Source: an uncultured Gemmatimonadales bacterium
Lineage (GTDB): Bacteria > Gemmatimonadota > Gemmatimonadetes > Longimicrobiales > Gaopeijiaceae
Direction of reading: 5' to 3'
Assembly: GCA_963740595.1 (NCBI GenBank)
Contig: CAVUEU010000004.1
Coordinates: forward strand, 201,777-265,776
DNA length: 64,000 nucleotides
Shown here: one piece after another, positions 4,242 to 7,200 of the stretch
Numbering within the stretch: the first letter of the stretch is position 1
How the letters are laid out: each line of letters starts with the position of its first letter
Made by a program: the position numbers and the translations under genes
The notes under the pieces: model-generated
The model's database searches: none
Seen by the model: the letters and a program-made list of their open reading frames with translations, nothing else
Told to the model about the DNA's origin: nothing

Positions 4242-7200
4242 ATGGCGAACGAGATGACGGCACCCGGGAGTCTGCGCACCATCGGCATGATCGGCGACGC
4301 CCACGGCAAGTCCACGCTGGCGGCGGCCATCGAGGCCGCGCGGCCCGACCCGCGGCGCTTCAAATTCATGGACTGGCCGGATCGCCCAGAGTGCGCGAAG
4401 AGCATGATCACCGGGATGGCGCGCCTGGACGGCGCCGTCCTCGTCGTGAGCGCGGGCGACGGCCCGCAGCGCCGCGCACGGGAGGATCTGCTGCTCGCCC
4501 GCGAGCTCGGGATCCGCGCGATCGCGGTGTTCATCAACAAGATGGACCTGGCCGCGGACGAGGACGTCGCGGCTCTGGTCGAGCTCGAGGTGCGGGAGCT
4601 GCTGAGCGCCTACGACCTGCCGGACCAGGCGGCTCCGGTGGTGAAGGGGAGCGCCCGCGCGGCGCTCGACGCGGGCGGAGAGGGACCGGACGCGGCGTGC
4701 ATCAGGGATCTCCTCGATGCCCTGGATGCGTGGGTGCCGGAGCCGAAGGCCGACGCCGACGGGCCGCTCCTCATGCCGATCGAGGATGTGTTCCACATCG
4801 CGGGTCGGGGCACCGTGGTGACCGGACGGATCGAGCGCGGAGCCGTGCGCGACGGCGACGAGGTGGAGATCGTGGGCGCGCGGGCCCCCATGCGCACCGT
4901 CGCGACGCGGGTGGAGATGCCGCCCGGGCTCCTCGACGAGGGCTCGGCCGGCGACAGGGTCGGGGTTCTGTTGCGCGGCGTGGACAAGAGCGAGCTGGAG
5001 CGCGGCTTCGTGCTGGCCAGGCCGGGATCCATCACGCCCCACGCGAGGTTCAAGGCCGAGGTCTACCTGTTGAGGGACGAGGAAGGTGGGCGGGCCGGAC
5101 CCTTCTTCTCCGGCCACCGTCCGCAGTTCTACTTCCACACCACGGACGTGACCGGGACCGCGCGGCTGCCCGCGGGGATGGACAGCGTGATGCCCGGCGA
5201 CAGCGTGGAGCTCGACGTGGAGCTCGCCAGTCCCGTGCCCATGCGCGCCACGCAGCGCTTCTCGATCCGCGAGGGTGGGCGCACCGTCGGGGCGGGCGTG
5301 GTCACACGCATCGAGGTCCCCGACGTCGGTGCGGTCGGGGTGGACTTCGGCGGCACCCGGTCGGGCGGAGTGACACGCTCCGCGGGGGGCACCGCGCCCC
5401 CGGCGGCACGAGGGGGCGCGACGCGTGGCGTGGCGGCACCCGCTCCCGGGGAAGCCGAGCCCGGGCCGGCTGTCCGACGGCTCCACGCGGACCTCACCTT
5501 GTTCGACGAGACGGGCGAGACCCGGATCGACGACACCAGGGACGCGTTGTGCGAAGGGGAGTCCTACGTCCTGGAGGTCGCCCTCCGTGGGCGCCGCAGC
5601 GGCATCGCCTATCGTGAGGACGAGCCGGACCCTGTCGCCCCGCCGCCGGCGGGGGAGCCCGCCCGCATCCTCGCGGTGGTGAGCGCGCGCGACACCGACT
5701 TCGAGATCGGCGAGCCCGTCCAGTTCATCGAGCTGCCCGCGCGGATCGAGGCCGATTCGAGCGTCCATGCGCTCTTCCGCTGCGCGACGAAGCGGCGCAC
5801 GACGAGCGCCGACGACCTGGCCGACATCGAGGTGCGTCTCTACTACGAGATGAACCTGATCGAGCACGTCGTGCTGTCGGCGGAGATCCGGGGGCGAAAC
5901 GACTGCGAGGAAGGGTCCGGGCTCGGCCTCGCCCCGCCCATCGTGATCCGGCAGATGAAGGGCGTGGCGCGCGACTACACCGCGATCGTGCGTGGCCTGC
6001 AGCCGAGGTACATGAGCGTGGACGTGCGCGCGCTGGACAGCGGCGTGCGCTTCTCGATCACCGTCGGCACCGCGAAGGGGAAGTCGACGGCCGCGCGCGC
6101 GCACCAGGTGGTCCTGCACGGACGGTGCGACCTCGGCGACAAGGACCTCGGCGTCGCGGTCAATCGGATCCGGGACCTGTGGCGCGACGTCGCGGTGGAC
6201 CGCTTCGCCGGTGTGGTGGACGGTGGGGCCCGCATCTTCCAGAGGACGCTGCGCGACCTCGCGACCGAGGGGCGCGACCTGTGGTCGCTCCTCTTCCGTG
6301 GTGCCCAGGGCTCGGCGATGTGGAACATCGGCGAGTGGCTCGAGACCCATCGGCCCGGGGAGCGGGCGATGGTGGAGGTACGCCTGCTCGACGGTGCCCA
6401 GTCCTTCGTCTTTCCGTGGGCGCTCCTGTACGACGGCCCCGAGCCGTCGGCCGGAGTCGACCTGGAGGGGTTCTGGGGCCTCCGCTACGCCATCGAGCAG
6501 AAGCCCGTGAGCCGCACCATCGTGCCGGACGCGGCCACGGATGCGACGGCGGGGCTCGACCTGGCGTTCATGGTGTGGGACAGCTTCCCCAACGCGGCCG
6601 ACCAGACGAAGCTGCTCGGGGACCTCGCGACGAAGTCGCAGGGTCGGCTCCGGGTGGGGAGCCCTCCGGTGAACGACCCGCACGCGTTCTACACGCTGGT
6701 GGAGGACTGTGCCTCCGACATCCTCTACTTCTACGCGCACGGGCACACCCGGCCCTCGCAGGCCGACGCAGACTACCACGACCTGGATCGTTTCCGTGAG
6801 CGCTACGAGCTGCTCGCGGAGGATTCGCCCCAGCGTGCCGCGCTGAAGGACCTCTACGACATGGTCACGCACCCCGACTTCGACCCGGGCGAGTCGTGGA
6901 TCGCCCTGTCGGGCGGGCGTCTCTACCTGAGGGAGCTGCGCGCGAAGACGGTGAACCTCACCCGACGACCGATCGTCATCCTGAACATGTGCGAGTCGGC
7001 GCAGGTCCTCCCGGGGCTGGCCGACAGCTTCGTCACGTTCTTCCTGGATCGGCAGGCGCGCAGCGTGATCGGCACCGAATGCCCCATGACGAACCAGTTC
7101 GCCCATCCCTTCTCCGAGCGCCTGCTCGCGGAGCTCCTGGAGGGCGAGTCCCTGGGAGAGGCCCTGCGGCTCGCGCGACTCCATTTCATGCAACGGAAGA

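Follow-up and report, generated by a model that had tools for sequence, protein, structure and literature searches.

What use does a caspase-like protease have for a copy of elongation factor Tu (EF-Tu) whose GTPase centre has been dismantled? The question is raised by a 64,000-nucleotide stretch of contig CAVUEU010000004.1 from an uncultured Gemmatimonadales bacterium (hereafter the window), in which one open reading frame (ORF) at 4242-7346 on the forward strand encodes a protein of 1,034 amino acids (aa) that consists of a pseudo-EF-Tu, a linker, an Ig-like/helical module and a CHAT protease, in that order. The ORF is taken to be a real gene: its GC content at third codon positions is 0.91, its GC by codon position follows the pattern of a real gene in a genome of ~72% GC, and five other independent assemblies (P0002-P0005 and P0144) carry the same architecture. 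An antisense ORF of 1,239 aa (3603-7322, reverse strand) spans the whole EF-Tu-CHAT gene, and was rejected as spurious, a usual artefact of high GC, given the strong homology and the third-position signal on the forward strand. Our answer to the question is a tentative one, to which we would grant somewhat less than an even chance: that the pseudo-EF-Tu binds a ligand, as a bait or as a built-in co-receptor, and so provides the input of a single-chain sensor-protease.

An earlier note on this DNA, made from the letters and a list of ORFs, had placed a collinear EF-Tu alignment at residues ~10-365. Collinearity with the G domain, domain II and domain III was borne out over aa ~10-357, and the strings that the note had quoted were all found in the protein (a 25-residue stretch at aa 176-200, HRPQFYFHTTDVTGT at aa 292-306 and FSIREGGRTVGAGVV at aa 340-354, together with the motifs GDAHGKS at aa 18-24, DWPDR at aa 44-48 and NKMD at aa 99-102). 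When the 1,034-aa protein was searched against Pfam, GTP_EFTU matched aa 30-166 through profile positions 62-187 only, GTP_EFTU_D2 matched aa 190-259 (E 2e-15), GTP_EFTU_D3 matched aa 263-357 (E 2e-30) and CHAT matched aa 720-987; EF-Tu chains in the PDB matched aa 34-357 at E 7e-120. The module was accordingly divided into a G-domain remnant (aa 1-165, 4242-4736), domain II (aa 166-262, 4737-5027) and domain III (aa 263-357, 5028-5312), the last being its best-conserved part. The EF-Tu models of NCBIfam aligned aa 36-357 with profile positions 73-394 and gave 407-424 bits, far above chance, against cut-offs of 449-522; TIGR00485 scored 407 bits against a cut-off of 522 and NF000766 scored 424 bits against 449, with the match starting at profile position 70-73.

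The motifs of the G centre were read from an alignment of the window protein with Escherichia coli TufA and a Longimicrobiales EF-Tu; the TufA sequence used differed from PDB 4p3y_A at one residue. At G1, GHVDHGKT is replaced by GDA-HGKS (4293-4313), one residue short as the earlier note had described, and the P-loop pattern GxxxxGK[ST] is lost. EF-Tu residues 40-62 align with nothing but gaps, and ~37 residues (roughly EF-Tu 38-74) are deleted, the junction being occupied by ARPDPRR (aa 33-39, 4338-4358); the absence of the switch I block was thus upheld, although the ~30 residues first estimated were slightly too few, and the deletion takes strand beta2 along with switch I and its Thr61. The claim that the known cleavage loop is lacking also held, as the Lit site G59-I60 and the type IV Thoeris sites R45 and R59 are gone with the deleted loop. 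At G3, DCPGH is changed to DWPDR (4371-4385), which replaces the DxxG glycine and the catalytic His84, again as had been noted. The survival of G4 was likewise seen in the alignment (NKCD in true EF-Tu, NKMD at 4536-4547 here), and G5 is SAL in true EF-Tu and SAR in the window protein (aa 137-139, 4650-4658), which keeps to the pattern SAx. Since the guanine-recognition motifs G4 and G5 survive, the pseudo-EF-Tu may still bind some nucleotide.

With G1, G2 and G3 all departing from the EF-Tu pattern and the scores falling below the curated cut-offs, the N-terminal module is, by its sequence, an EF-Tu derivative and not a functional member of the EF-Tu family. Its ~60% identity to EF-Tu and the retention of NKMD and SAR would suit a specialised, working EF-Tu that is merely tethered to a protease; set against the shortened P-loop, the loss of switch I with Thr61 and of beta2, the substitutions at G3 and a score under every NCBIfam EF-Tu cut-off, such a working GTPase is scarcely credible. 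The earlier note had proposed that the module is a molecular bait, and had said that this idea would fall if G1-G5 proved intact or if the similarity lay with another translational GTPase family. The motifs were found not to be intact and the similarity was not to another such family, so that the bait idea stands as something we infer.

In order to place the fusion, the C-terminal 635 aa were used to search 5.8 billion protein clusters (90% identity). Only five clusters of EF-Tu-bearing fusions were found (P0001-P0005), with protease halves 62-75% identical to that of the window; P0144 is a near-identical copy of the window fusion. The G centre is damaged in all five clusters, and differently in each: G1 appears as GDA-HGKS, GDE-AGRS, GHAGHGKS or GHEGQGRS, G3 as DWPDR, AWRVL, DWAGR or DWPSH, and G4 as NKMD, DEAD, NKLD, DTEG or SKID. 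In P0002, domain II also carries an insertion and substitutions within otherwise conserved motifs.

Whether the module derives from the host's own tuf had been left as a check by the earlier note, and three lines of comparison point to that origin. The nearest genuine EF-Tu sequences were 59-61% identical, and those that bear a name are from Longimicrobiales or Gemmatimonadota. The signature AGGEGPDAxCI, which includes a two-residue insertion relative to E. coli, is common to the window module (AGGEGPDAACI, aa 144-154, 4671-4703) and to the EF-Tu of Gemmatimonadota and Longimicrobiales. At 45 diagnostic sites, defined as those where five Gemmatimonadota EF-Tu agree with one another and differ from E. 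coli, the fusions agreed with Gemmatimonadota at 13-24 and with E. coli at 4-8. On the closest matches, the signature and the site states taken together, the pseudo-EF-Tu evidently descends from the Gemmatimonadota-type tuf of the host lineage, with E. coli as the sole outgroup in the site comparison.

The constraint on the three domains was then compared by measuring identity to a Longimicrobiales EF-Tu (P0043). In the G domain (73-200), the identities of P0001 to P0005 were 53%, 50%, 59%, 26% and 30%, against 81% for E. coli EF-Tu; in domain II they were 66%, 46%, 58%, 52% and 51%, against 75%; and in domain III they were 67%, 52%, 57%, 64% and 60%, against 76%. The gradient of conservation is therefore reversed, running domain III > II > G in the fusions, whereas true EF-Tu is best kept in its G domain. 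Across two true EF-Tu and all the fusions, 67 positions were invariant; domain III accounts for 32 of them and domain II for 17, and the G domain, although twice as long, for 18. In domain III the fusions resembled one another about as closely as they resembled true EF-Tu, suggesting that this domain is held close to the EF-Tu sequence, with no joint drift toward something new.

These figures also bear on the idea that the module is a relic, that is, an accidental fusion of a duplicated tuf which is decaying and has been kept merely as a folded N-terminal spacer without specific binding. The great rarity of the fusion (five clusters among 5.8 billion), the differing ways in which the G motifs decay and the insertion and substitutions in domain II of P0002 would all be expected of a relic, as would the faster divergence of the EF-Tu module than of the protease; between P0001 and P0002 the EF-Tu domains are 48-54% identical and the C-terminal part is 75% identical. 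Sensor domains, however, likewise evolve faster, the decay is selective by domain and not uniform, and the reading frame is intact, with domain III still 52-67% identical to true EF-Tu while the protease halves fell to 62-75%. We regard a relic as very unlikely.

The positions through which EF-Tu takes part in translation were followed in the same alignment. We take K89/N90 and R318-H319-T320 to be tRNA contacts (the latter with the T-stem), E215/D216 to be positions of the aminoacyl pocket, and Q114/H118/H84 to be contacts with EF-Ts. All of these positions vary among the five fusions.

The module is joined to the protease half by a low-complexity linker (aa 358-404, 5313-5453) rich in Gly, Ala, Val and Pro. 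A linker at ~366-410, rich in Gly, Ala, Arg and Pro, had been described before; its presence was confirmed, and its extent and composition were revised. Both its length and its sequence differ across the five fusions, and it was modelled only for aa 400-404, its last five residues, with a predicted local distance difference test (pLDDT) score below 50.

The description of the C-terminal half as a protease proved correct. CHAT (PF12770) was matched at 36.8 bits, above the gathering cut-off of 24, over aa 720-987, and the catalytic residues His833 (in AHG, nt 6738-6740) and Cys917 (in NMCES, nt 6990-6992) were invariant in an alignment of 18 family sequences (A3); because this dyad is invariant in the family, the protease should be active. 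An AlphaFold2 (AF2) model of aa 400-1034 (pLDDT 84.7, predicted template modelling score 0.85) showed a pair of beta-sandwich domains followed by a helical segment and a caspase-like domain of alpha/beta type. The beta-sandwiches (~aa 415-629), which gave Foldseek sub-matches to macroglobulin/Ig-like domains, and the helical segment (~aa 633-702) make up a conserved middle module at 5454-6371, followed by the caspase-fold CHAT domain at 6372-7280. When the model was compared with the PDB, Csx29 of Craspase ranked first (8eey_B, E 2e-10), and separase (5fby, E 3e-10), the anti-sigma factor DdvA (8rot, E 2e-7) and SAVED-CHAT (8tl0, E 1e-5) were also matched; the top matches had ~13% identity and a Foldseek probability of 1.00. 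By profile, by dyad and by fold, the C-terminal protease is a member of the CHAT superfamily.

The protease belongs to a far larger family than the fusions. A profile search of 1.84 billion representative proteins (E<=1e-30, clustered at 50% identity) recovered the constant module of ~600 aa in at least 864 clusters from bacteria and archaea, with N-terminal regions that range from 0 to ~980 aa. Among 38 members with longer N-terminal regions, 23 carry HEAT repeats, and TIR, sigma70_r2 and CBS domains occur in one member each. Genomic representatives of the family were found in Acidobacteriota, Chloroflexota, Cyanobacteria (Microcystis), Actinomycetota, Alphaproteobacteria, and methanogenic and methanotrophic archaea. 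The EF-Tu module thus sits in the exchangeable N-terminal slot of a constant protease chassis, and EF-Tu-CHAT would be an instance of a kind already known, a caspase-like protease with an exchangeable input domain.

Two further observations concern this slot. The member with a sigma70_r2 domain recalls the protease-controlled sigma factors of DdvA/DdvS and Csx30/RpoE (alignment A4). A sister clade (P0006-P0016, and the gene at 4678-7611 of locus L013), 46-55% identical to the EF-Tu fusions, has a conserved N-terminal domain of ~390 aa with the motifs WPLRIGVLP, MVRRxLA, CDLL and LSHNxPLDVALW; this domain had no match in Pfam or in a PDB profile search. That it might be a decayed EF-Tu was rejected, as hhalign gave a probability of only 0.3% when the domain was compared with an EF-Tu profile. 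A weak similarity to the last helices of CHAT (35 columns, E 0.075) hints at a degenerate caspase-like domain.

The protease gene is accompanied by a small gene at 7343-7804 on the forward strand, encoding 153 aa, which begins within the stop codon of the protease gene (ATGA). Four other loci encode a partner of 52-76% identity, a level that holds even when the identity of the protease is ~47%. Homologues follow the protease gene directly on its 3' side in 13 distinct loci outside the window, archaeal as well as bacterial, and the constant module is accompanied in this way in the majority of the loci that were examined. The family of this partner comprises 75 clusters, of which not one is informatively named or contains a Pfam domain; the partner had no NCBIfam match and no Pfam match at E<=1, the presence of an EACC1 model in that copy of Pfam being unconfirmed. 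An AF2 model of the partner (pLDDT 88.6) was all-helical, with nine helices and a Gly/Ala-rich hydrophobic two-helix hairpin at aa 103-132 (nt 7649-7738), and no structural neighbour was found in the PDB (best E 0.15) or BFVD (best E 0.96). PADLOC gave weak matches (E 6e-4) to PDC-M35B, a component of a candidate system, whose name was found in no paper in our literature search. Invariant in the partner are the cysteines C81 and C144 and also Arg91, which belongs to a conserved D-R motif and might serve as a cut site for an Arg-specific caspase-like protease.

From these components we infer a possible course of events. A factor whose usual target is domains II/III of EF-Tu would bind the pseudo-EF-Tu, or modify it; this factor could be a phage capsid-type protein (as in T4 Gol-Lit and Avs7-EF-Tu-major capsid protein) or a toxin that uses EF-Tu. 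Engagement of this ligand would lift an autoinhibition of the CHAT protease, which would then cut the translationally coupled 153-aa partner and possibly other proteins. Cleavage of the partner is probably the output; its hydrophobic hairpin suggests that a membrane-active fragment could be freed, leading to membrane damage or growth arrest. The sensor reading draws on the occupied slot, the reversed gradient of conservation, the lost translation contacts and published precedents.

Csx29, separase and DdvA are CHAT proteases that are kept off until a binding event and then act on a small dedicated partner, usually encoded in prokaryotes by the adjacent gene. Csx29/Csx30 of type III-E Craspase, separase/securin and DdvA/DdvS provide the folds closest to the constant module (Foldseek E 2e-10 to 2e-7), and differ from the system described here in several respects: the EF-Tu-CHAT locus has no CRISPR effector, sigma factor or cohesin context; the input is a pseudo-EF-Tu, as opposed to the TPR/ARM repeats of that group, at ~13% identity; and the EF-Tu-CHAT partner is unrelated to theirs in sequence and in fold.

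EF-Tu itself recurs at the centre of phage-host conflict; it is bound or used by the T4 capsid protein, by phage replicases such as that of Qbeta, and by interbacterial toxins. In the Avs7-EF-Tu-major capsid protein complex (Nature 2026; PMC13581612), EF-Tu domains II/III, in an open inactive form, are a structural part of a capsid sensor. A fused, switch-dead EF-Tu would be a permanent version of that arrangement, with the difference that Avs7, a STAND NTPase with a nuclease effector, borrows normal free EF-Tu, while EF-Tu-CHAT has a dedicated degenerate EF-Tu paralogue fused to a protease and no NTPase. EF-Tu is also cut in switch I by Lit (G59-I60) and by the type IV Thoeris caspase (R45, R59). 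These defence proteases resemble the window protein in that they involve EF-Tu, and their cut sites lie in the very loop that is deleted here; for them EF-Tu is a victim, cut to stop translation, whereas here an EF-Tu copy forms part of the protease and no longer has those sites to be cut. Lit, a metalloprotease, is also unrelated to CHAT.

A closer parallel in logic may be drawn with the integrated decoys of plant nucleotide-binding leucine-rich repeat (NLR) receptors, such as the WRKY domain of RRS1 and the HMA domain of RGA5/Pik-1. Common to both is a copied host protein that no longer has its former activity and is built into a receptor (a putative one in EF-Tu-CHAT), which, as proposed here, would be triggered when a pathogen factor engages the copy; derived from the EF-Tu of its host lineage, the module is a copy of a host protein that pathogen factors engage. 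The plant decoys belong to STAND NTPase receptors with demonstrated immune function and known effectors, whereas EF-Tu-CHAT has no NTPase and its immune reading would be by analogy. The architecture resembles that of a conflict system, in that the input varies, the protease is a CHAT domain and the family is scattered across phyla, archaea included. It is possible, although on balance doubtful, that the window holds the first prokaryotic integrated decoy, a host-derived switch-dead EF-Tu acting as bait for phage or toxin proteins within an undescribed two-gene abortive-infection family with a novel helical membrane-active partner in bacteria and archaea. If so, bacteria, like plants, turn a copy of a pathogen's target into a sensor, and the module would offer a handle on EF-Tu-engaging phage and toxin proteins in a poorly studied phylum. 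Apart from the bait idea, the analysis brings to light a large family, so far uncharacterised, in which a constant Ig-like/CHAT module with interchangeable N-termini is coupled to a novel-fold partner, the two forming a candidate protease-effector pair. In a literature search of limited scope, no paper was found that joins EF-Tu, CHAT and decoy or defence, and no description was found of the family of at least 864 clusters, of a degenerate EF-Tu module or of the decoy reading.

The bait reading thus gained from the EF-Tu derivation, the dead switch, the missing cleavage loop, the reversed gradient, the lost contacts and the variable slot. Several points weigh against it, as they do against the wider sensor reading. 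No ligand of the pseudo-EF-Tu was identified. In the alignment, Gly, Pro and hydrophobic residues make up many of the positions that are invariant within domains II/III, which fits plain maintenance of the fold. A ratio of nonsynonymous to synonymous substitution rates by domain, taken against the near-identical locus L028 as the only close-enough pair (synonymous sites would be saturated in more distant ones), says nothing on selection, the two loci being separated by 10 substitutions (6 amino-acid changes). Since nothing structurally related to the partner could be detected, to cast it as a membrane effector is guesswork. Neither the window nor those of the relatives' loci that were examined showed a recognisable defence island around the family member, none was found on viral contigs (IMG/VR), and the weak PADLOC match of the protease to BovA (E 1.8e-5) covers profile positions 558-658 of 711, around the catalytic Cys. 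The flanks in the window and in the examined loci are housekeeping or metabolic (PadR with a MacB-type permease, cytochrome oxidase, pyruvate:ferredoxin oxidoreductase, arginase and a major facilitator superfamily transporter). Given these flanks and the absence from viral contigs, EF-Tu-CHAT and its partner behave as a self-contained two-gene cassette, and guilt by association gives an immune role no support. Finally, the sole published mention of an EF-Tu-caspase fusion treats the variable domains as deployed effectors, not as sensors (Kaur, Burroughs, Iyer & Aravind, eLife 2020; PMC7159879).

Two candidate identities were rejected in the same searches. Identification of the protease as BovA of Borvo was set aside, as similarity extends over only ~100 of 711 profile positions and not over the full length. 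Phage origin was also set aside, since IMG/VR contigs yielded no family member and what the EF-Tu part matched in phage databases was ordinary host tuf, in records that were chromosomal or contaminated.

The report by Kaur et al. describes the EACC1-caspase two-gene conflict system ('System 4') and lists EF-Tu among variable domains that it reads as effectors freed by auto-proteolysis (PMC7159879). Carried over to the window, this would mean that CHAT, activated by another signal (possibly via the membrane-associated partner), severs the linker within its own chain; the freed pseudo-EF-Tu would then interfere with translation in a dominant-negative manner, for example by trapping EF-Ts or occupying ribosomes, so that growth stops. 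The long, low-complexity linker contains several Arg, and related caspase-like proteases are Arg-specific; the sigma70_r2 and TIR domains found in one family member each could also be released cargo. A nucleotide-free mimic of EF-Tu could in principle hold EF-Ts tightly. Such interference with translation fits poorly with the five fusions, in which the EF-Ts (Q114/H118/H84), tRNA (K89/N90, R318-T320) and aminoacyl-pocket (E215/D216) positions are not conserved, and a GTP form fit for tRNA or ribosome binding is improbable because there is no switch I and no normal P-loop. The commonest N-terminal domain of the family, HEAT repeats, is a binding scaffold and not a toxin, while a linker rich in Gly, Ala, Pro and Arg is to be expected at 72% GC, and the members without EF-Tu that were inspected (P0006, P0012 and P0017) have no such linker. 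We consider the freed-cargo explanation unlikely.

The EF-Tu-CHAT cassette shares with EACC1-caspase a pairing of two genes, a caspase-superfamily protease joined to a highly variable domain, a sporadic distribution, and a small constant partner (PMC7159879). The EACC1 partner has a conserved hydrophobic helix with a small/glycine patch, to which the Gly/Ala-rich hydrophobic segment of the present partner may correspond. It differs in gene order, the small gene being 5' in EACC1-caspase and 3' here, where it overlaps the protease stop; in domain order, the caspase being N-terminal and the variable domains C-terminal in EACC1-caspase and the reverse holding here and in all relatives seen; and in the two Ig-like domains that precede CHAT. 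EACC1 is a single transmembrane helix with short extensions, whereas the 153 aa of the present partner form a bundle of helices that includes a two-helix hairpin. Kaur et al. are silent on GTPase decay and on a sensing role (PMC7159879), and the text of their supplement holds no EF-Tu or EACC1 entries. Judged on these features, the cassette resembles EACC1-caspase in logic, departs from it in gene order and domain order, and has a partner that is not detectably an EACC1.

The loss of the cleavable loop invites another explanation, in which the module either docks the protease on the partners of EF-Tu, so that translation components are cleaved, or, itself lacking the cleavable loop, mimics EF-Tu as the true substrate of the protease and closes the active site until displaced. 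A bacterial caspase-like protease does cut EF-Tu switch I at R45/R59, and precisely that loop is missing in the fused copy. Separase, which is among the closest folds by Foldseek, is held inactive by its pseudo-substrate securin. The Thoeris IV caspase is, on the other hand, promiscuous and not specific for EF-Tu, and since the usual N-terminal domain of the family is HEAT repeats, substrate mimicry cannot be its general logic. The tRNA and EF-Ts contact residues are not conserved, and the present analysis gave no sign that the protease acts on EF-Tu. Targeting or pseudo-substrate inhibition is, on this evidence, quite unlikely, and the sensor-protease remains the reading that we prefer.

Immediately upstream of the EF-Tu-CHAT gene lies a second CHAT gene (918-4232, forward strand), encoding a TPR-like helical-repeat protein of 1,104 aa with a C-terminal CHAT domain (Pfam E 4e-36, aa 811-1100). 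It ends 10 nt before the EF-Tu-CHAT start, and on account of this short gap the two genes are probably co-transcribed. The pairing recurs at L028. The upstream protein gave a weak match to Csx29 (E 1e-3, far under the cut-off) and nothing above noise against the EF-Tu-CHAT protein or the upstream CHAT gene of P0002. That the upstream gene is a conserved third component was rejected, as it is absent at the P0004, P0012 and P0015 loci and unrelated to the upstream CHAT gene of P0002. The P0002 locus has other CHAT genes upstream, unrelated in sequence to the window's gene at 918-4232; a protease cascade made up of such tandem CHAT genes is conceivable.

On its 3' side, the cassette adjoins genes for PadR and a MacB-type (MacB_PCD/FtsX) permease at 7947-11044 on the forward strand; the same genes adjoin it at the divergent P0004 locus (L002, 937-3965, reverse strand), with a different orientation. 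A BNR/sortilin-repeat protein is encoded near the cassette in both, at 29020-32466 of the window and 4090-7824 of L002. The sharing of PadR, MacB and BNR genes may reflect lineage synteny.

Further along the window, a gene at 48661-52377 (reverse strand) encodes a STAND-like AAA_16 ATPase-TPR-LuxR (GerE) regulator of 1,238 aa, which has no relation to EF-Tu-CHAT. Two segments stood out in composition: 38001-40000 (GC 0.756, AT skew +0.30), over an ORF at 37525-39657 (reverse strand) without a Pfam match, and 42001-46000 (GC 0.65-0.68), over a TonB-dependent receptor gene at 42272-45475 (reverse strand).

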